This document shows, one piece after another, positions 1 to 64,000 of a stretch of 64,000 nt of DNA (positions are counted from its first letter, which is position 1; each line of letters begins with the position of its first letter). The DNA comes from Escherichia phage ERS-1, in the sequence record PP337211. The stretch is one strand, 5' to 3'. The notes under the pieces are model-generated. The model made no database searches, was not told where the DNA came from, and was given only the letters and a program-made list of their open reading frames with translations. Position numbers and translations under genes: made by a program.

Positions 1-49
1 TGTTATTGCTAAGGTTAACCTGGTAACTGGGACACAAGACTCCAGCACC
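1..49. repeat. Partial copy (3' half) of boundary repeat element E: inner-stem arm ATTGCTAAGGTTAA (5-18), 24-nt variable segment (19-42), outer-stem arm CAGCACC (43-49); cut by window start
   Basis: Matches the 3' half of the complete copy at 57,996-58,128 (same arm sequence, same spacing, same terminal CAGCACC). T4-like DNA starts immediately after pos 49. Confidence 0.6.
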
Positions 50-127
50 ATTCCTATAAATAGCAGACATTAGATATTTCTTTTCTTCGCCTTCACGAAT
101 ACGATACTTCTTACCGATTTTAAACAT
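50..127 (-). pseudogene. Truncated CDS: 26 N-terminal codons (MFKIGKKYRIREGEEKKYLMSAIYRNG) whose reading frame runs into the repeat at 1-49
   Basis: ATG at 125-127 on minus strand; no stop before the repeat or window edge; the body of the gene is absent. Confidence 0.3.
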
Positions 128-129
128 AA

Positions 130-306
130 TTACCCTTTAAGTAAGTCGTAAAAACCACCGTTCACATGCTTAGGAGCAGAAGGCCGACGAGTAGACAGAC
201 GATGACATTTAGGGCAAACATCATTTTCTCGTTCAGAAATCTTTTTAATTTTTTCATATTCATGCCCGCAATCTTCGGATTGGCATTTATAATCATACAT
301 TGGCAT
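130..306 (-). CDS. Small zinc-ribbon protein (58 aa; CxxC..17..CxxC)
   Basis: Own translation of minus strand: MPMYDYKCQSEDCGHEYEKIKKISERENDVCPKCHRLSTRRPSAPKHVNGGFYDLLKG; two Cys pairs typical of a Zn ribbon. Below the 60-aa cut-off of the ORF track. Confidence 0.4.
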   Translation of the reverse strand: MPMYDYKCQSEDCGHEYEKIKKISERENDVCPKCHRLSTRRPSAPKHVNGGFYDLLKG

Positions 307-308
307 AA

Positions 309-545
309 TTATTCCTTAAAGTGTGCTTTCAACATCTGATACAAGGACCATGCCTGTTCATTATTTTCAATAGTAACTTTCATGACAGGAAATGCTGTGA
401 AATCTTCTATTTGTTCTTGCTCTTCCTGCTCTTGTTCTTCAGCAGCCTGATATGGATTTTCAACTTCATCAAAGAATTCAGCTTCGTTAGTAGAAAGCCA
501 CGATAAAGTTTTCGTCAATGACTGTATCACGTGTTGAATATCCAA
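309..545 (-). CDS. Hypothetical acidic protein
   Basis: 78-aa ORF, phage-like AT-rich codon usage, part of a tightly packed minus-strand array; no motif recognised. Confidence 0.35.
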
Positions 546-729
546 TTATGCCAGCAGATGTCACAATTTCAGTAGGACGCCCGTAATAGTCAACATCTAA
601 AATTTTAAAAGGTTCCATACCTAAACGTCGTGCATAGATTCCGTTATCAGTATGGTCTTTAATAAAATTTTCTTGAGCCTGTTTATTTTTAAATTGATAC
701 CATTTATTAACTTCAAATTTAATAGCCAT
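487..729 (-). CDS. Hypothetical protein
   Basis: 80-aa ORF, packed in the same operon-like array; ORF overlap at the 5' side suggests a frameshift or alternative start. Confidence 0.35.
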
Positions 730-34546: not shown

Positions 34547-34961
34547 TTAAATTTTCCAGTTACCGTTTTCATCAATGAATTTAATCCAGTCATTTACTGA
34601 CCACTTAGTCGTATCGCCTTTTGGAGCAACATTTAAAGTGTATAATCCTTGTTTAAAAAGCATTCGTTTGATATTCATATTTTCCTCAGCTGTAACGATA
34701 GCACTCGTTTGATTTACGCTTAGCAACTCGTTGAGAAGTATTGTAATCAAAATCATCGTCAATGTAAACTGATTTTTTCAACTTTCTTACTTCACTACGC
34801 AATTGACGGTTTAGCTCATCTTTAACTTCTGAATCAATGCCTTTCATTCTACGCCATTTATCAGAGCGAAAAATGTTTTCAACCATATCTTTATGACTTA
34901 CACCATCAGGAGCTTTACGCTTTCCGAAATAGTCATAATCACGTACTTTTAAATCTTTCAA
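34547..34961 (-). CDS. Hypothetical protein(s), two overlapping ORFs, possibly one frameshifted gene
   Basis: ORFs 34686-34961 and 34547-34762 overlap in different frames. Confidence 0.25.
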
Positions 34962-36446: not shown

Positions 36447-36674
36447 TTATTTTTGCCTAAGATTAAATCCGCGTTCGTTCGGATTTCCCAAATATCCGCA
36501 TGTTCTTCTTATTGTGTTCATCTTTTTAGGATCAGTTTCTCCACAAATAGAACAAACAAACCCGTTTTCAGTAGGAGTCATTTCATGGGTACTTCCACAC
36601 GTAAAACATTTATCTACTGGCATATTAACGCCAAAATAATCTAAATGTTGTGCAGCATAATCCCATAGGTTCAT
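36447..36674 (-). pseudogene. nrdD: 3' fragment (last ~75 codons) of anaerobic ribonucleotide reductase nrdD; the 5' ~85% of the gene is missing
   Basis: Translation ..CFTCGSTHEMTPTENGFVCSICGETDPKKMNTIRRTCGYLGNPNERGF.. contains the C-terminal Zn ribbon and glycyl-radical motif (RxCGYLG) of class III RNR; upstream codons (KKKKKG, from the T-run) are not NrdD-like. Confidence 0.8.
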
Positions 36675-36676
36675 GC

Positions 36677-36780
36677 CTTTTTTTTTTTTTTTAGGTGCTG
36701 TCGATTCTGTTTGTAGTCGTCTGTTTAACCTTAGCAATACTAACTGAACCAAGTACAAAACAGTCAATTGCTAAGGTTAA
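36677..36780 (+). repeat. Boundary repeat element E, copy A: T16 run, AGGTGCTGT, 23-nt segment, 14-bp inverted repeat with 28-nt loop; lacks the 3' CAGCACC arm
   Basis: Direct comparison with copies at 36,927-36,971, 57,689-57,776 and 57,996-58,128. Confidence 0.7.
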
Positions 36781-36819
36781 GTCAATTGCGTAGTGAAGTA
36801 AGAAAGTTGAAAAAATCAG

Positions 36820-36848
36820 TTTACATTGACGATGATTTTGATTACAAT
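36820..36848 (+). promoter_or_regulatory. Sigma70-type promoter candidate (TTTACA, 17 bp, TACAAT) pointing into high-GC block 1
   Basis: Read directly: -35 at 36820-36825, -10 at 36843-36848, 17-nt spacer; AT-rich context between repeat copies A and B. Confidence 0.4.
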
Positions 36849-36926
36849 ACTTCTCAACCAGTTTAAGTTTAAATTAATCTTTTGAGGTTTGTCGGAACAA
36901 TTTATATTAAACTGGTTCTTTTTAAA

Positions 36927-36971
36927 CAGGTGCTGTCGATTCCGTTTGTAGTCGTCTGTTTAACCTTAGCA
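36927..36971 (+). repeat. Repeat element E, copy B (5' half only): CAGGTGCTGT + CGATTCCGTTTGTAGTCGTCTG + TTTAACCTTAGCA; left terminus of high-GC block 1
   Basis: Differs by 1 nt from copy A over 32 nt; near-identical inverted copy at 57,689-57,720. Confidence 0.7.
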
Positions 36972-39900
36972 TATGTCTAATGTCGAAGCCACACACCACC
37001 GCCAGAGTTAAAGGATCGACTCCCATGGAACACCAGCACCTTCGGCATCAAGCTGAGCAAGATCTTCCCGTGGCTGGTTCAGGAAGGAGCTGCCGGGATC
37101 AATCGACTTCCCGTGGCGGACCTCCTCAACGCGCCCGGAAGGTGAACAGGCCTGCGCATGACCTTCGCCCAGCTCCGTCCAGGATGACCTGGCGGTGAAC
37201 GGTCGCCTTGGCGGGACGTTCAACCTGCTTCGCCGCCGGAAGGATGACGAAAGCGACGGGACCGCGGGCGCCGCCGCACGGGCGACTGTCCGTGAATGCC
37301 CGAACCTCCCTGGCCGGCTCGGCATGAGTTCGCCCTTCACGTGGTGGGGCCTTCCACCTCCCGGAGGAAGGCCGGGCGTCTGGGCGTCCGGACGATGTCA
37401 CCTGCCTGGAGCTGCGGCGGCGGCTCGTCACGCCTGCTCGGCGAAGGACCTGATTGGTGGGGCCTGGCTGTCTGGGTTGAAGCCCGGGACAGGTACTGTA
37501 CGAACACCGAGCATCCGAGGACCCTCCGGTGATGGTGGACATGGCGGGGATCAAGCGCAAGGACGCCAAAGGAAACTACCTGGGCCGTCCTACGGGATGG
37601 GCGGGGCGAAGATGTGCCTGGGCTCGGGCTCCCGACGATGATGGCCGTGCGCGGCCCCCGCTTCCGCTGTTCGACGCGGCACCTGCCCGGAGGGTCGGCG
37701 CCTGGTCGCGGAAGGGGCGCGGAGGTTCGAGGCCGCGGGGCCGGAGGGTCAGGCCCTCCTGGACACCCTCCACCCGGGTGCCCGTTCGCATCGGAGAAGC
37801 TGGCGAAGGCTTGCGAAGCCCGGGCGAAGGCCGTGGGCGGCGTCACATGACCTGAGCGGTCGCCGCTGCCGCTTCCCGAAGGAGGGGACGGGAACTACGA
37901 CTGGGACCCGGCGACCAACCGGCTGATCGGGCTCCTCCCGCGGACCGGGTCAAGATGGCGATGGTGGCCTGCGCGGAAGCCGGACTGGGGCGTCCCGGGG
38001 CCGGCGATGAGATCGCCTTCGGCTAGGCGAGGCGGAGGAGGCCGCGGAAGCTGCCTGGTTGCGGACGTGTACGCCGCCCCAACTCCCGTCAAGGTGGACG
38101 TGGAGATTGGGCAGGCTGGGGTCATCGCTTGGGCTGGACGGGAGCCGCCTTTGCGGTTCCGCTACGGGTGACGTGGGTGTCGGCTCACTCGTTTGCGGAT
38201 CGCTGCGGGTGTACCCGCTCGACCCCGCAGGAAGTCCGGGCGAACCCCTGGAGAACGATATGCGCCGTGGCAACGACAGCGTCCGTGGACCTCGAAGTGT
38301 TGGCGAGCGTGAGAAAGGGGGCCCTGGTCGACGGCGGCGGTGAGGAGGAAGTCTGGATGCCGGGTTGGTGTCCGCGCGGTCGAGAAGAAGGGCCTGCGGC
38401 CACCTGGACCGTCACCGAATGGATCGCCGGGTCAGAAGGGGCTGATATGAATGATCGCTGTGCGCTGGGAAGTTCTGGGCGGCGATGATCTGGGAGGCGG
38501 TCCTGGTCTGGCTCCTGGTAGGCGGTTGCCGGTGGACGCCTTCGAGTCCTTGACCTGGCCTCCTGCTGGGCGGCACTTCCTCGGAACGTTGCCCGGTTTC
38601 CGCTGAAGGAGGAGGTGAAATGAGCGAACGTCAAGACCGCCTGGGACCGCCGCGATGTTGGGCTGGCCGGTCGTCGCGGGCTGGAAGGGGTGATCAAGGT
38701 CGGAGCCGTCCTGGTCGGCCGGGCGGTGGCGCGGCTTCGACCGGGTTCAACGGCTTCCCGCCCGGTGCGATGACTCGCCGGAGCTGTACGCTGACCGCGG
38801 TGTACCTGCCGTCGGTGGCGGAGGCGTTGGCTCTTTAGGCTCGCCTGCGACGGCTTCGCTCTACATTCTTTCCCTGCTGTCCGAACTGTATGGAGGCCGC
38901 GGGGAAGGCGGGCGTGAAGCGGGTCGCCTTCCCGGTCGACTACGGGCTGCGATCCGGGGTGGGTTGCTGAGTGGAATTCGACGGTTGATGAGGCTTTGGA
39001 AGTCGCCCGCCGTTAGGGGTTGAAGCGAGGTGGGTAGATGTCTGAAGCCGGGCGCGGGACTCCCTCCGCCCCGTCATCCGGTCGCTGGACCCGGTGCGCG
39101 TGGAGAACCCCTTTCGCGCCCGGGACCCCGGATGTGAACTATGCCGGGCTGGATTGAATTGAAGTTCGCTGAACGCTGGCCGCCCTGGGCGGACCGCTTC
39201 CGAGTGGACCGACTCCACCTGCCCAGCACCTGGCTCACCCGTCGCCGGGTGCCGGGGCCGGGCCTTCCTCCTGCTGAAGGTCGGGAGACGGAGTGGTTGC
39301 TGATTCGATGGAGCGGTGGCCGCTGCGACGCCGGGCCGGGTTCCGCGAGAACGCCTGTATGAGGTCTGCGCTGCCGTTGGATGCCTTCCAGAAATGAGGA
39401 GATTTGTAAATGTCGCCGCGGTGAGGCGGGCGGAAGGTGAAAGCCCACCGCTACACCGCCGCTGGCAGGGTTGAACCAAATTGAGGCCGCGAAGGAGTAC
39501 GGGGTCCTTGCACCGCTACCGTGATGGGAAGCGGACCGCCGCCTGGACGATGAACCGTGCCTGTCCCGGCGAGGTCCGAGCCCGAGGTCTGCTTGCTGTT
39601 CCGCCGCCGCTCGGGCAAGACCTGCGCGAAATCGCCGCCGCTCTGGGCTGACTCGCCTCGGGTTGTCCAGATGGCAGGACGGAAAGCGCCGGTTGAGCGC
39701 CTTCGTGAATATTGGGGCTTTTGAGGGGGATCGGAAATGGCGGAACTGCCGAAGTGGAGACGAGGATGGTTGACTTCCTGAAGAAGCGGTGCCGGAGGGG
39801 CCGTGGGTCCTGACGGCCATCGTCCGGACGGGAAAACGGAGACGGTACCGTCTTGTTGCCCACTGCTTAAGGCCGCGGAGTGGATCGAGGGCATCAGGGC

Positions 39901-56072: not shown

Positions 56073-57688
56073 TCCTGGACGCGATGCGAGACGGCGAGCG
56101 CGAACCGCCCCGGGTCGCCTTCCCGGTTCCTTTCCCATGAGAACCGGGTTGCTCCTCGCTGACCCGGAGGGCCTGGTATTCGAGCCGCGGCCCGGAACCC
56201 CTCCGACTCGCCGCCTGGCTCCACGGCTCCTGCAGGTTGTTTGCGGGAGGATGTTGTACGAGGCTTGCACCGCGGGACGCACCGCGGCGCCCTCCGTCCC
56301 GCTGTCGGTGATCCCGAAGCGGTGGAAGATCGACCTGCGGCTTCCACCGGGCCGGAGCCCTTTGCCGTCCTGTGGTGGGCGGAGTCGAATGGGAGCCGTT
56401 CGAGCGGAATGGCCGCGTGTACGGAAGGTGCGGGGGCGATCTGTACCTGATCCTGTAGCGGGTACGGCTGGAACGGGAACGCGAGCAGGGCGTCCTGCGG
56501 CTCGCCTCGGAGGTCGCCCAGTGGGTGAAGGACCGGGAGGAGGATTGGGCGCTGGAAGGTCGGGTCAGCCCTGGCCCCCGCGACCTTCTCCTCACGTGGA
56601 GGTATGGGGCCTGGATTGCTGTGGAGGCGGAGAGAGGGTGTGCGCCTGGACGCCCGCGGGAGGCTGGGCTCGCGGGTGGGCTGGGAGGGGTTGGCTGTCG
56701 GAGGGCGCTGCCTCCGGCGGCGGGGACCGCGCCAGGTCCCTGGGCTGTTCGGTTTTTTCGACCCGTGCTGGTGTCGTCCAGACGGTCCCGCGCTGCCCCG
56801 CGATGAGGTGTACCTGGGATGACGTGAAGGCGGAGGCGGAGGACCGGTTGGTGACGCGACCGCTACCGCGTGCGGGGTAAGCTGCGTGGTGCGGTGGTGG
56901 CCCGCAGAGGCTCGGCCGGGTCCTCGCCTTCGGGCGAGAATCCGCGAACCTGGAGAACCGACGGCCGGCGAGACGGCAGCCCTGCCGACCTGCGGGGCGT
57001 ATTAACCGCGCTCCCGCGCTGGCCCACGCTCCAGACGCCGCCTGGGCGGGACCGAAGGGCGCGCGAGGCGGGCGAGACGTACCTACCCCGCCCTCGGAGG
57101 AGACGGCAGGGTGGGCTATCGGGAGCGCCTGGCCTCCGCCGCTCCTCCTCGGCGGTTGAACCTGGGCGCCTGGACCTGCCCTGCAGCGGAGCCCTTTGCC
57201 AGCCGATCAAGCCGGCCAGGACGTGCCCGGAGGCGATCCAGGAGATGATCCTGCCTGACGTGGACCTCCTGGGGCTGCCCACGCGTTCGCCCGTCCTGTG
57301 GTTCCGCCAGCCTATCCGGTGAGGCCCTGGCCTCCTCGTCCAGACCGCCTCGCCCGGCCCCGCGGAGGATGGCCTACCCGGACCTGGCGGATGACCGCCG
57401 GGAGGGCCTGCGCCCTGACTGGGTGATGATCCAAGCCGGAGGCGCCCGCTGTTGGCCCGGTCGGAGGTGATCAAATGGGGCCCGAGTCCTCTGCGTGCTG
57501 CTGTCCAAGTTACGAGGCGGAGGCAGGACGGCTTCGCGCAGGCTTGGGAGCGCTGTCCGCGTCCTGGAGCTGGGCCTTGTCCCGGCTCTGGCAGCCGGTG
57601 AGAAGTTGGTGGTCCCGCAAGGAGGAGTGGGTGCTGGCGGATGAGCGGGCCATGGGGCTGAACCACGTCCCTGTGGTTGCCTTTACGC

Positions 57689-57776
57689 CAGACGACTACA
57701 AACGGAATCTACAGCACCTGAGTATGTATTGCTAAGGTTAGAGGGAAACACGATAGAATCCAACAGCACCTAAAAA
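57689..57776 (-). repeat. Repeat element E copies D2 (57,689-57,720, right terminus of block 1, inverted relative to copy B) and D1 (57,721-57,776, 5' half plus inner-stem arm), both in reverse orientation
   Basis: Reverse complement reads TTTTAGGTGCTGT-TGGATTCTATCGTGTTTCCCTC-TAACCTTAGCAAT-ACATACT-CAGGTGCTGT-AGATTCCGTTTGTAGTCGTCTG. Confidence 0.7.
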
Positions 57777-57995
57777 GGTTCAACTTTTTACTAAATAATA
57801 AATGTTGTAGTATCTTCTTAAAACGAAAAATTTAATTTGCTTTAAAACCTTCCCAATTTTTTTTGCCTTTTTTTAACATACGTCAGAACATGGAAGAATG
57901 GTGGCCGTTTTTTACACTGTGAAGAAACAATTTTGAACTTTTAAATGACTTCCATTTATATTGTTTTAATTTCCTTTTTTCCCGTTTGTTGTTAA

Positions 57996-58128
57996 TTTTT
58001 TTTTTTAGGTGCTGTTCCGGATTTATCGTGTTTCCTGATTAACCTTAGCAATACGTAACTGAACGAAGTACATAAAAACACCAATTGCTAAGGTTAAAAG
58101 GTTACACAAACCCTGGACAAGCAGCACC
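57996..58128 (+). repeat. Repeat element E, complete copy C: T11, AGGTGCTGT, 23 nt, TTAACCTTAGCAAT, 31-nt loop, ATTGCTAAGGTTAA, 24 nt, CAGCACC; abuts high-GC block 2
   Basis: Nested inverted repeats (outer 7 bp GGTGCTG/CAGCACC; inner 14 bp) read directly; loop similar to copy A loop. Confidence 0.7.
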
Positions 58129-61100
58129 CTCCCTTTGCGGTGTTCTCCGGCTCCGCCTTGTCCTTTGAGAGCGGAGGGGTGTCGCTTGTTGATGCAGCGG
58201 GCGATGGCGAACATGGACCAGAGGTGCGGGTGGTCCGCGAGGGCTGACGGATGCTTCTCGTCCGGTCCTGGTCCCACCCTTCCGGTTGGCTCCTGGAAGA
58301 TGTTGGGTACTGCCTGTTCCAGACCGGGTCCGCGGTCGGGCCGGGGCTTCCCGGCCTTGCGGTCCGGTAGATGTCGCGCCGGGCCTTCAAGGCGGCGACG
58401 TCGTCGACGCGCGGGGTGGTCGGTGCTGGGTCCTGGTCGGGCCCTCCGATGACGGCCTTGATGTCCTTCAGGGCCGTCTCCCTGTGGATGTCGCGGACCG
58501 TCTCGCCGTCCGCCAGGGCCTCCCGCGGACCTGGGCGATGGCGCGGTGCTTGTTGGTCCTTCCCTGGTCCTCCTCGACGGGCTTCCCGCCGTCGCGCTCC
58601 TGGATGTGCTTTGGCTTCCAGCGGCGTGTCCTGAAGGCCGGGTCGCCGCCGTTCGCCTTCGACCGCCACCCTGCGTTGGTACCTGTAGATGGTGCTGATG
58701 GCCGCCCTCAAACCTTACCGCCTTCACGTCCGGGTCCCGCCCAACCAGCTCCGCGACGGCCTTGGCGGCGGCTTGGGTCTTGATCCGGTCTGGGCCGGCG
58801 GTGGTCGCTCCGGCGGCGGCGGTGTAGTCCCCGATGATGGCGATGCCGTCCGGGGCGTGTTGCCGGGATCGGCTTGTGGTCCGGGGACGATGACGTTGAT
58901 GACGCGGGCGGATCGCGGGCCAGGCTGCGCGGGGGTGTGCTCTGCCGGAGCCGTATGCCCTGCCCGTCGATGTACTTCGGTTGGTTTTCCAGTTTGGTTG
59001 AAAACGGCGGAGCCGGAGCCCCCGCCTGGGGTTGCTGTTGGACCCTGCGCGATCGGATGATCTTGCGCTCGCCGCCGTCCTCCTCCGGCGGGGCTGGTTT
59101 CCCGACCTCTGAGTCTGGGCGAGCGGCCTTCGCCGCCCCAGGTTCCGAACCGCGGGCTCGGCTCGTCGTCGTCCGCGCGGTGGAGACCTGGCCGGTGGGG
59201 GGCGGCTTCCCCTCACCTCCTGGAGGGCTGGCCCGTCGGTCCGGGTGAAGGTTCGGGACGCGCTGGCCGTGGCGGCCCCGCGGCGATCATTTCACGCCTT
59301 CCAAAGCCAGTGCCGGTTCGCCGGTTCCGGGCTTCCCGCGGCGGTCCAGGCGTGTCGTCGCGTAGGTCGTTGCCGCGCTCCGTCGCCGGTTCGGTACCTG
59401 CCGGCGGGCTTCGACCCGGCACGGCTCGCGATGGTCTTTCCGGGCTCCGGCCTGGTTCTCCGCGGGCTGTCGGCGAAGGCTTTGGTGCGCCCCGGGCTGA
59501 ACCGCTTTTGGAGGTGTTCGATCATTGCTGGAGCCCTGCTGTAGCCCGCTTCCCGAATTTTGCGATTGCGTGGTCGTTGCCGACCGCGGCCTGGCGCTCG
59601 AAGCTGTGGCGGATGTCGTCGTGGGTGACGATCCCCGGGATTACCGGATTGACCTGATGGAGGTGTACATGCCCGACGCGCGCTCGCGATTTCGTCGGGA
59701 TGGTCCTGAAGGCTGATGGCCCCGGAGGCTCGTGCCGTTGTGGTCGTTGCCGGTGTTCGGTGACTTCTGGGCGTAGCTGTAGGGGTTCCGCTTCGGAGGT
59801 CGATGGCCGGATGGGGTAGCAGACGGCCGGGAAGAAGACTGGGCCGGGAGTTGGCGAAGGCTTCCGCCCCCGCCTGGGTGTTATGGGGCGCTTTGAAACG
59901 GTGAAGGGGTCCGTGAAGCTGGAGAAGCAGCCCGCGGCGGAGGTCCGGACTTCGAGAGGCATTTTGCGGACCTGCTCGCCGTAGTTCACCGGGACGCTGA
60001 TGAGGCCGGTGCCGCGGTAGCCCCGGAACCCGCTGTCGACGTAGAAGGCGCAACCCACTGTAGCCCCATAAGGCTCCGTCAGGATCGCCTCGCTGCAGGG
60101 GCGGGCGCGGGAGCCTCGCTTGTCGTTGTGCTTGTCCTGGCACCTGCCCTGAAGGGGCTTGGCGTTCGGGATGCGGATGTGCGGGAGGTAGGTGACGACC
60201 CTTTGAAGCCGGTAGGCCCAGCCCTTCACCTCCTTCTTGTCGTCTCTCCTTCGCGTTGCGGACCGTCCCCCCTGCCTTGCCGGAACTTCGCGCGCTGGCG
60301 CCGGTCCTGCACCCTTCTCCCCCATCGGGCCCGGAACTCCCGTTGGTTCGGTCCGGCGGCGAAATACTTGTAAGCCTCCTGAGCGGCTTCGCCGGTGCCT
60401 TCCTGCCCTTGCCTGCGTGGTCCGGTCATTCTCCTTCAACTGTGAAAAAAGTCTTGAGCGCCTTACCCGGAAGAAGTAAGCGGCGTTAATCGGCCCCGGC
60501 TCGCCACGTTGTTTCCGGGAGGTCCCCTGGCCTTCGCTCCTCCGAATGCCGGCGACCGGCGAACTGCCGGAACCGCGCGGCGACCCTTCCGCGTCATATC
60601 CTCCAGGTTGTCCTTTTGGGACCCGAGGGAACAAATGCTCGGGGTTGACGCACAACGGTCGGTCGCAGCGATGAACTTACGTTATCGCCGTCGGGATGGA
60701 CCGTCGAACCTGGCCGAAGGATAGCCGATGAGTGCCGTCTTAGTCTCATGTTGGCGTGCTGCTTATCATTGACTGGGAGCCGTTGGTTGGTCCCGTCTCC
60801 GGTCTTGATAGTGGGCGTCGAAGTAGGTGAGCCGGTCCGTCGATTACCCCATGTTCGGAATGATGGGGCGTGGGATGGACGAAGCCCGTTGAGCGGTTGC
60901 TGCGCTTTAGCTTTTGGGTTGGTAACGGGTTGGGGGAACGGGGCGGAGGCGTCCCGGGCTGCGTCCGCGTACCCGTAGCCCTCGTCGTATTACCGGTCAC
61001 CCGGTTGCCGGGTGCCTGGCCGCGGCCTTCCCCATGTACTCCCGGGTGGCGTCCTGGCTCTGCAGTATCCTTGTGGAGGATGACGTTGTAGTTGCGGGCC

Positions 61101-64000
61101 CGCCCCCTCCAAGCCCTCTTCAGTGCCCGGCGGCGACCGTCCCCGAGCTGAGACTGATGACCGGGGTCCCGGAGTCCGGGAGGTGCGGGGCGGTGCGGAC
61201 GGCCTCCGCGGGCGTTCTCCGTGATCGACTCCGGGAGCTTCGGGTGTTCGGCTGTAGCTGTCGTGGGAGTTCTCCCGTGCTTCTTGGCCGGACGGGGATC
61301 GCGGAGCGGCCCGCCGGCATGTCCAGGTCCGCCCCGAGCTGGCGAGCGCGCCCGCCGCCGGACGCGCGGGGCGTCCGCGGCCCCGTCGCGCTTGAAGCGG
61401 GGCCAGTAGTCCACGGCCTGTTTCCCAGCTGCTGGCAGGCGACCGCCCGGCCCGCCTTCGAGCGGTACGTGTCCGGCTGCCGATGGTGGTTCTTGTGGTC
61501 TCGATATGGGCGAGGCCCCGCCAATCTCGCTGAAGGACGGCACCGGGAGCGGGTGCTCTCCCCGCTTCAGGATCGGACCCCGTTGAGCGGGCGTTTGACC
61601 GGGCGTCGTTGACGACGTTGCTGCCTGGCGTGGTCGAGGAAGGCCCGTGCGGCGGAGGGCGGCCTGCCCGGTTCGAGCCCGCCGTCGATTTCCCGGATGT
61701 TGTTCCGTGGGTAGTGGCCGTTCGACGGTGGGGATTTTCCATTTACACAGCACCGTTCTACCTCTGCATGTTCGGCGGGTGGTTGCCCGGGTGGGCGGGG
61801 CGAGGTCCGCGAACCGCTGGTTTGCAGTCCGCCACCCGGACGCTTGATCGCCTCGCGCTTGGGCTTCGCGTTCTCCGGGTACTGTGAGCCTCGCGCTGCT
61901 CCGCGTTGCGGCCTTCTCCGGGTCCTTGAAGGTTAAGGCGGCGTCGTGCCGAAGTCGGCCGCACTTCACCGGTTCGACCTGTCCGCGATCTTGAAGCCGA
62001 TCCGGTCGGACCGAAGCCGTCGTGCTCCTGGGCGCGGGCGGAGACGGTGCGGAAGGGCAGGCGCTCCTCCGTCGCCCGGGCTCTCCCGTGCCCCGCCTCC
62101 GGGCGGTCGCCGTAGCGGGCCTGGAGGGAGGTTGCGGAGTCACGGTATCGGCCTGTAGCGGCGGTGCTCGCGTCCCCGGGGGCCTGTGCTCCCCCGGCGG
62201 GCGTCTCCTCCTCGTCGCGGGCCGCGACCTTCCCGGTGCGGCAACTCCTCGCCCTCCTCCACCAGGAAGGAGGCCACCCGGCGTGGTAGCTCCAGAATAA
62301 CCGAGGAGCCCGGGAGCTGCGGCACGGAGAAGTCCCCCGCCTCCTCCGCCCGAACCAGGGCCGTGTACACGGGTCCAGATCGCCGGTGGTGATCAGGTGT
62401 CGGCCGGGGTCGTCTCGATGTCCGGTCGCGGGGCAAGTTCTGCTCGGCTTTTTCTGGGTATGCGTGACTGATTTTCCCGGCTCAGGTCTTTGCGATGTCC
62501 GGTTCAGAGAATTGGCGACGAAGGAAGGCTCCGGCGGGACTTTTCGTCACGTGATACGGGAATGGACTTGTCTGGCGCCGCCGTCGCCGTCCTCCGTGAT
62601 CCCTGGTGAACCCGGCAGGAGCTTGAAGGGCTCCGTTCTGTATCCCCGCTCCGCCGGGCACCTGCCCGGCGGGGGTGCGGTGTGCGCTCCGAGGCTCCCG
62701 TTACCCTTGCCCTTGTCGGCCTGGCGGGTCTGGCGGGCGTCTGCCTTCGGCGGACTTTGCGGCTCGTGGGCCGGGATCGCGTGGCCTTCCGGGACCTCCG
62801 ACGTGGAACCGCTCGTGCCGTCCGCGTCGAAGGCGGAGCGGACCCCGCAGCCCTTTGGTCGCTTGTCCTGCTGAAGCCGGAGTGGGCGGTGGCTTCGGTC
62901 CTGGGCTTGTTGCTGCCCTTGGGCTTCGACCTGTTCGGCCGGTCCTCCTGTTTGGGCGGGACCCCCTACGTCGGGAGACGGCCGCTCCGAGCCCTCGCGG
63001 CGGGGGATCGGGGCGTGGCCCGGGCGGCAGGTTGGCGCCGCGCGGGCGCGGGCCTTCCTCCTCCGCGGACTTCGGAGCCTTCTGGGCCTTCGGAGGCGAC
63101 GGGCGGGGGTTGCGGTTTGTTTGCGGTTTCGACCTTCTGGGTTCGGCCTGCTGCTGCTCGGCACTTCCGGGCGCGCTTCGGCGGCGCCAGGCTTCTGTGT
63201 GGGGGTATGGCGGTGGTCTTGTCGGCAAGCGGTGGACGTTCGGGACGGACTTGCCGTTGCGGAAGGTGCCGATGACTTCGTCGGGACCTGCTCGACCGGG
63301 CCGGGCTGGACCTCGCTGGGAGGCTTCGGTGTAGGCGACGTTGTTGAAGTTGATGGTGTTCATGGTAGGCTCCTTCTGGGGTTGAGGTGCGATCTTGTTC
63401 GACCGTGAGAGAAATCTTAACCCTGCCCCCGAAGAAGTAAAGTGGTTTGACTAAACTTTTTCAGTTTCCCGTCCGAAGGCCAGGTGCCCGTTGGACGGCG
63501 GAGGGCGAACCGTTGGCGCCTCTTCCCAGAAGGCCCGGGCGGCGTCTCGTGCCCTGTTCTCCTGTACCAATGGTTGCGCCCCGAGGTGTGCGGGAACCCA
63601 GCGACCTCGAAGCCCCAGCGATGTTGGGTTGCACTGGTGGAAGTCCAGGTGCTGGGCCGGGTAGCCGAAAGCCTCTGCGACGTTCCGCCCAACGAGGATG
63701 ACGTGCCGACCGCCCAACAAGGGCTTCCCTCGCGGCTGCGGGCCCCGCGTCCCGGGCGGGCCGCTGTCGTCCCGCTTCCAGCGCCCCGGGAAGGTGTGGA
63801 GCAGGTGGTGCGGTCGAAGGTCTTGAGGTAGTCCTTGGGCGATAGGCCTGCCTGCTCGCCCGACGCCCTCCCGCGGAGGACCGCGGAGGGGAGCCAGGGG
63901 CCGGTCCGGGTCCGCGTTAGGTCCTGGCGCTGGCCGATCTGGGCTTGTTCGTTCTTTCGGGCACATTTCTCTGGGTGACGTTCTGTTTGAGGTCCGCTCC
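58129..64000 (-). other. High-GC block 2 (at least 5.9 kb, continues past window end): frame-drifting protein-like coding signal on the minus strand
   Basis: Minus-strand translations contain protein-like stretches (e.g. ..PDGIAIIGDYTAAAGATTAGPDRIKTQAAAKAVAELVGRDPDVKAVRFEGG.., ..AILTEPYGATVGCAFYVDSGFRGYRGTGLISVPVNYGEQV..); plus-strand ORFs are low-complexity. Confidence 0.5.
58440..59000 (-). CDS. Candidate protein-coding segment in block 2, frame-disrupted; function unassigned
   Basis: Protein-like segments in two minus-strand frames (..EALADGETVRDIHRETALKDIKAVIGGPDQDPAPTTPRVDDVAALKARRDIY.. and ..DGIAIIGDYTAAAGATTAGPDRIKTQAAAKAVAELVG..); no catalytic motif recognised; boundaries arbitrary. 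Confidence 0.2.

Follow-up and report, generated by a model that had tools for sequence, protein, structure and literature searches.

Multiplexed viral sequencing is known to yield chimeric nanopore reads that contain internal adapters and carry two different barcodes (Xu et al. 2018, PMC6156371); cross-barcode chimeras are reported to arise mainly during sequencing, not during library preparation (PMC6156371). In native-barcoded nanopore reads, the patterns used for trimming are AAGGTTAA-N24-CAGCACCT at the read start and AGGTGCTG-N24-TTAACCTTAGCAAT at the read end (PMC11984142). The oligo for native barcode NB03 is given in a methods section as AAGGTTAA-CCTGGTAACTGGGACACAAGACTC-CAGCACCT (bioRxiv 10.1101/2021.06.06.447246), and the read-start adapter is printed as AATGTACTTCGTTCAGTTACGTATTGCT (bioRxiv 10.1101/2022.07.07.499093). 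On the biological side, the closest described region is that of the Tequatrovirus genomes with the gene order 39 - 39.2 - goF - cef - motB - dexA - dda ... nrdD.

The window analyzed here is a 64,000-nt stretch of the Escherichia phage ERS-1 record PP337211. An earlier note took the sequence at its left edge for a copy of a repeat element that truncates a phage gene. The supposed element is a synthetic Oxford Nanopore (ONT) barcode adapter in an uncorrected chimeric long read, and the gene truncation is a sequencing artefact. Like the chimeric reads described previously (PMC6156371; White et al. 2017, cited there), the window has mid-sequence adapters, differing barcodes, and pieces that map to different genomes. 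In contrast to the usual chimeric reads, which join two molecules, at least five are joined here, and one long insert has discordant barcodes at its ends. The order and orientation of the sequences at the junctions are those expected at read starts and ends from ONT native barcoding (the NB01-NB24 set, with flanks AAGGTTAA and CAGCACCT) combined with the ligation sequencing adapter.

Results

The 49 nt at the left end of the window match a published ONT native barcode. They read TGTTATTGCTAAGGTTAACCTGGTAACTGGGACACAAGACTCCAGCACC and are followed by AT-rich DNA from position 50. Positions 11-49 correspond on the plus strand to NB03 in its 5' form, made up of AAGGTTAA (11-18), CCTGGTAACTGGGACACAAGACTC (19-42), and CAGCACC (43-49). 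The agreement with the published NB03 oligo is base for base with 0 errors, except that CAGCACCT lacks its final T. The 24-nt core at 19-42 is BC03 of another source (PMC8342707) in reverse complement. Directly before the barcode unit stands the 3' tail of the read-start adapter. Positions 1-10 (plus strand) read TGTTATTGCT, while the top strand of the sequencing adapter is expected to end in ...ACGTATTGCT. The ATTGCT is exact, and the first four bases deviate from ACGT at three positions; errors in the bases ahead of ATTGCT are usual at read starts. The same arrangement of AAGGTTAA, a 24-nt ONT barcode, and CAGCACCT is found with NB04 at 57734-57771 and with NB05 at 58090-58128. Shuffled sequences gave 0-1 loose flank matches, compared to the 6 well-formed units observed.

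The gene at the left edge is the beginning of a longer Tequatrovirus gene. The earlier note had described a minus-strand gene that starts at 127 and is cut after 26 codons at 49/50, and both the translation and the alignments bear this out. Its ATG (127-125) lies two bases past the stop of an intact 58-amino-acid zinc-ribbon gene (130-306). The product is MFKIGKKYRIREGEEKKYLMSAIYRN over 26 codons, and it then continues with unrelated residues encoded by 1-49. Its first 26 residues agree with the N-terminal end of a 123-amino-acid Tequatrovirus protein, MFKIGKKYRVREGEEKKYLFSAIHRNGSINAV... Alignment of the left edge to T-even genomes, which the note had proposed as a check, identifies the truncated gene as a 123-codon gene of phrog_622. 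Its first 26 codons occupy 50-127 on the minus strand (tblastn, amino acids 1-28, 86-93% identity), and the full-length 123-amino-acid relative is assigned to phrog_622 (function unknown) with an E value of 2e-28. In alignments with eight relatives, nucleotide homology ends at window positions 44-50. This places the left break at 49/50 with a precision of ±3-6 nt, because by chance the adapter flank ends in a few bases similar to those of the phage (AGAACCATTCC versus CAGCACCATTCC).

The neighboring gene at 130-306 (minus strand) is an intact homologue of T4 gene 39.2, encoding an FmdB-like zinc ribbon of 58 amino acids (phrog_1076; PF09723), and many T4-like contigs encode the identical protein. 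The goF homologue (309-729, minus strand) is split into ORFs of 78 and 80 amino acids. In most of the relatives read it is a single ORF of 139-141 amino acids, while in phage GADU22 it is also annotated as two pieces. The split in the window is most likely one of many indel errors.

The truncated gene is complete in natural relatives. It has the full 123 codons in all eight Tequatrovirus relatives examined, and both the gene and the genome run on leftwards without the element. The order in all eight is the 123-codon gene, a gene for an 86-amino-acid protein, and topoisomerase gene 39; rIIA.1 and rIIA are reached in six of them, where the stretch that was read extends that far. For example, in SholemSchwarzbard and GADU22 the gene downstream of the 58-amino-acid zinc-ribbon gene is 372 nt long (123 amino acids) and is followed by the 86-amino-acid gene and the topoisomerase large-subunit gene 39, and the GADU22 stretch continues to rIIA.1 and rIIA. 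The truncated gene is the counterpart of this 123-amino-acid ORF, which lies between the 39.1-like and 39.2 genes of the two phages. T4 itself has no 123-amino-acid ORF between 39.1 and 39.2. Six loci with an identical 58-amino-acid protein were also read; the 123-amino-acid gene, the 86-amino-acid gene, and gene 39 are present in all six, and rIIA.1 and rIIA in five. The NB03 sequence is absent from each of these six loci, and no adapter-like insertion was found at the homologous site in the eight T4-like relatives.

In contrast to its relatives, the window has only 26 of the 123 codons, and many of its genes are frameshifted by sequencing error. Since 1-49 consists of ONT barcode NB03 and an adapter tail and the gene is complete in eight relatives, the claim that a repeat element truncates it does not hold. 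Only the first 78 nt of the gene are in the window because the sequenced DNA fragment ended at 50, and it is for this reason alone that the gene looks cut. The truncated gene and the element are not a real feature.

Positions 50-36680 are a single fragment of T4-like (Tequatrovirus) DNA with uncorrected indel errors. It begins in the region of gene 39.2 and ends inside nrdD, in the 3' part of that gene. The fragment is collinear with the Tequatrovirus region, with 98-100% of 50-36667 aligning to T4-like phages at 94-97% identity. The reading frames, however, are not intact. The genes for gp43, a-gt, gp41, dda, gp46, gp47, uvsX, and gp61 are each spread across two to five frames, and among the essential replication and recombination genes checked only gp44 is intact. 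Relative to other T4-like phages there is about 1 gap per 390 nt, and no ORF is longer than 354 amino acids. The split frames are attributed to sequencing error and not to biology.

At the right end, homology to relatives stops at about 36667-36681; 12 T follow, and the adapter begins at 36693. Runs of 11-12 T are found directly ahead of 3' barcodes at 36681-36692 and 57996-58006. SA20RB, the sole relative aligned at the nrdD end, has no T run at the homologous site. The T runs are probably an end-of-read base-calling artefact. The proposal that both ends of the T4-like segment are clean breaks at element copies is correct in part: both ends cut genes (the 123-codon gene on the left and nrdD on the right), and junction-type sequence is present at each. 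However, the junctions are not copies of one element, and the right end is less clean, with its run of 12 T before 36693. The 36.6-kb insert has NB03 at its 5' end (11-49) and NB02 at its 3' end (36693-36738). A scan of 50-36680, run to explain this discordance, revealed no hidden internal adapter. T4-like DNA also adjoins NB04 (57772-58006).

Related sequences at other borders share only their flanks. They are found at 36693-36780, 36927-36971, 57688-57771, and 58007-58128. The junctions have flanks of 8-14 nt in common, while the 24-nt cores differ. No second copy of the 49-mer was found elsewhere in the window at up to 3 mismatches, which was the first sign of this pattern. No single element sequence recurs at each junction; the cores are five different barcodes.

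The junction at 36693-36780 (plus strand) combines a read end with a read start. It consists of AGGTGCTG, NB02 in its 3' form, TTAACCTTAGCAAT, and the adapter bottom strand with errors, followed by ATTGCT, the tail of the next adapter, and AAGGTTAA. The NB02 unit, with its flanks AGGTGCTG and TTAACCTTAGCAAT, occupies 36693-36738 (plus strand) and has one error in the barcode. Next comes a short T4-like piece (36781-36971, plus strand) that ends in a second NB02 barcode in the 3' form at 36927-36971. Positions 36781-36863 are an 83-nt, 99% reverse-complement copy of 34725-34807, which lies about 2 kb upstream; the copy follows the AAGGTTAA flank without a barcode. The 63 nt between the inverted copy and the NB02 3' unit (36864-36926) had no match in a local BLAST search against the fetched references. 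When 36864-36926, 36972-37010, and 57600-57700 were compared to these references, only the 83-nt inverted copy could be placed. The piece at 36781-36926 has the appearance of a short second read, or else of the same region read back as a fold-back or on the complement strand. A degraded barcode in the 5' form, tentatively assigned as NB07-like with 5 errors in 24 nt, is followed by an exact CAGCACCT (37011-37041, plus strand) and opens the first high-GC fragment.

A second group of junctions lies near 58 kb, with all units on the plus strand. NB02 in its 5' form with CAGCACCT is found at 57688-57719 without an insert, forming a barcode-only unit. It is followed by an adapter tail (TATTGCT), AAGGTTA, NB04 in its 5' form, and CAGCACCT, ending at 57771 (NB04 unit 57734-57771). 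NB04 occurs again in its 3' form at 58007-58052, with four errors and with AGGTGCTG before and TTAACCTTAGCAAT after the barcode. The exact 5' form of NB05 at 58090-58128 is part of the series ATTGCT, AAGGTTAA, NB05, CAGCACC, and it matches BC05 (PMC8342707). Units of the 3' form at fragment ends, made up of AGGTGCTG, a reverse-complement barcode, TTAACCTTAGCAAT, and ACGTAACTGAACGAAGT, are present with NB02 at 36693-36759 (with errors) and 36927-36971, and with NB04 at 58007-58069, where the adapter is exact. The read-end adapter strand GCAATACGTAACTGAACGAAGT, which comes after the 3' barcodes, matches without error at 58048-58069 but has errors at 36735-36756. The junctions depart from the ONT design in three ways. 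The final T of CAGCACCT is absent at 49/50 and 58128/58129, some barcodes have base-calling errors, and one AAGGTTAA (36773-36780) runs straight into the insert with no barcode.

The remaining DNA comes mainly from a Yuavirus-like phage. GC content rises from about 35% to about 69%, and the change falls exactly at the adapter junction near 37 kb. Positions 37042-57680 are similar to Yuavirus, a genus of Pseudomonas aeruginosa siphophages, with 69% GC, 81-82% identity, and about 1 gap per 25 nt. A second Yuavirus-like fragment at 58129-64000 represents a different genome region than the first. The two are separated in part by a 235-nt low-GC piece (57772-58006), 68 nt of which match the region of T4-type gene 59 (helicase loader). 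In the Yuavirus-like part, matches to the large terminase and the primase-helicase lie in frames that overlap and have an identity of only about 33%, so there is no coherent reading frame. The frameshifted essential T4 genes and the lack of a coherent Yuavirus frame mark the sequence as uncorrected long-read data. True divergence was rejected as the meaning of the 82% identity to Yuavirus, since the proteins fall to about 33% in overlapping frames and there is 1 gap per approximately 25 nt.

Base-calling is far worse in the Yuavirus-like DNA (37042-57680 and 58129-64000) than in the T4-like DNA, and A makes up 0.11-0.15 of the bases versus 0.17-0.21 for T. Thymidine hypermodification (5-NedU) has been described for Yuavirus M6 (PMC8989533, PMC6449724). 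It is possible that this modification caused the miscalls in the Yuavirus-like fragments. The value of 69% GC may be inflated by miscalls.

The adapter sequence is found in long-read assemblies of unrelated bacteria. The 31-mer TTAACCTTAGCAATACGTAACTGAACGAAGT (window 58039-58069) is present in 29 stretches of GTDB representative genomes, from lineages that include Gaiellales, Mycobacterium, Chitinophagaceae, Burkholderiales, a cyanobacterium, and Aquificaceae. Most of these stretches belong to assemblies labeled long-read or ONT. The 31-mer lies within 15 nt of a contig end in 23 of the 29, and AGGTGCTG and a 24-nt barcode, which varies, stand before it. Four cases inside contigs show a few junk bases after the 31-mer and then ...CGTATTGCTAAGG, which is the layout of end adapter and start adapter at 36.7 kb and 58.05 kb in the window. 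None of the 29 stretches is the window sequence itself. Among 2.9 million viral contigs there were 0 matches to either the NB03 unit or the 31-mer, and the NB03 junction string had 0 matches in metagenome contigs. The product of the DexA ORF likewise had no exact match on record. Thus the adapter occurs in the long-read assemblies of unrelated organisms, mainly at contig ends, and is absent from the homologous locus of the natural relatives examined.

Discussion

The sequence and distribution of the junctions make it nearly certain that window 1-49 is the start of a native-barcoded ONT molecule, that the T4-like DNA is its insert, and that the whole window is a series of chained molecules. Positions 1-49 represent an adapter tail, AAGGTTAA, NB03, and CAGCACC(T), with the Tequatrovirus insert ligated from 50. 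The chain contains at least five molecules, with barcodes NB03, NB02, NB07-like, NB04, and NB05. Two unrelated phages, a Tequatrovirus and a Yuavirus-like Pseudomonas phage, were sequenced in one multiplexed run, and the adapters were left untrimmed and the errors uncorrected. The molecules may have been joined by passing consecutively through one pore without being split by the software. Unsplit consecutive reads are the most likely route of joining because each internal junction has the full read-end adapter, followed by no more than the final 6-10 nt of the read-start adapter, which is how genuine reads begin. The earlier idea that the T4-like DNA is one module among several, and not the backbone of a single insertion, survives in a different sense. 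It is one of at least five pieces placed end to end, with junction-type sequence at each border, but what looked like modules are library molecules that are independent of each other and come from different barcoded samples.

Several observations are at odds with this explanation. A single cleanly barcoded molecule would not show both NB03 and NB02; for that, barcodes must have been cross-ligated once the samples were pooled, or the insert must contain a hidden join. For software chimeras, a run of several unsplit molecules is unusual. In addition, neither the first two of the short T4-like pieces nor the unit at 57688-57719, which consists of a barcode alone, is fully accounted for.

The discordant ends of the long insert and the barcode-only unit favor other ways of joining the molecules. 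The window could be a contig from an unpolished assembly of untrimmed reads that had not been demultiplexed, with the assembler keeping or creating the joins. Tiling from several reads would easily explain the differing end barcodes of the T4-like segment, and the barcode-only unit also counts in favor of this possibility, as does the fact that public long-read assemblies carry the same adapters at contig ends and occasionally inside. However, up to 4-5 errors per 24-nt barcode and about 1 gap per 25 nt in the Yuavirus-like DNA have the look of a single read, although systematic errors from modified bases could survive consensus. We consider an assembly origin possible but rather doubtful.

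It is also unlikely that barcoded molecules were physically ligated to each other after pooling in library preparation and read as a true concatemer. Such ligation would account for the mixed barcodes on one insert (NB03 on the left and NB02 on the right), and the barcode-only unit followed directly by another barcode (57688-57771) resembles barcode-barcode ligation. On the other hand, an internal adapter joined by ligation should be read over its whole length, yet both at 36725-36780 and at 58039-58097 the read-end adapter is complete and just the final 6-10 nt of the read-start adapter come after it. Ends that bear an adapter also have the motor protein on them and cannot be ligated, which also argues against this route. 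Furthermore, cross-barcode chimeras have been found to form during sequencing (PMC6156371).

A separate question is whether the fragment end at 50 is a natural physical DNA end, such as a preferred packaging or nicking site, that was caught by adapter ligation instead of being a random shear. T4-type headful packaging produces near-random ends, and a single molecule provides no positional statistics. A natural end and a random break look the same here, and we regard a natural end as very improbable.

There is practically no chance that the junction is a real repeated element, be it a mobile element, a recombination site, or the boundary of a module, that joins T4-like and high-GC modules in a mosaic genome and truncates a gene, since, although related sequences mark all of the composition boundaries and a gene is cut at either end of the T4-like DNA, the junctions are exact or near-exact synthetic ONT oligos with a different barcode each, their units of 40-90 nt have no ORF or coding capacity, the same sequence is found at contig ends of unrelated bacteria and in no viral contig, and a coliphage and Pseudomonas phage genome of 35% and 69% GC with frameshifted essential genes is not viable. 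Related genomes are uninterrupted at the site, and the junctions encode no mobility functions. A real hybrid phage or mobile element was rejected on the identity to ONT oligos, the bacterial contig-end matches, and the frameshifted genes.

As a chain of barcoded library molecules, the window matters only for quality control. The window, and presumably the whole record, is an untrimmed and uncorrected chimeric nanopore sequence of at least two phages from differently barcoded samples. Findings that rest on the element copies, the jump in GC content, the truncated genes (the 123-codon gene and nrdD), the inverted repeat at 34725 and 36781, or the broken frames should be read as artefacts. The patterns AAGGTTAA-N24-CAGCACCT and AGGTGCTG-N24-TTAACCTTAGCAAT offer an inexpensive way to detect this problem in other windows.

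ONT barcode and adapter sequences are also found inside contigs of several public bacterial assemblies. One example is the chromosome of Chlorogloeopsis fritschii PCC 6912 (NZ_CP170746.1), which is described as complete. The internal adapters suggest that chimeric joins or adapter insertions are present in deposited bacterial genomes.
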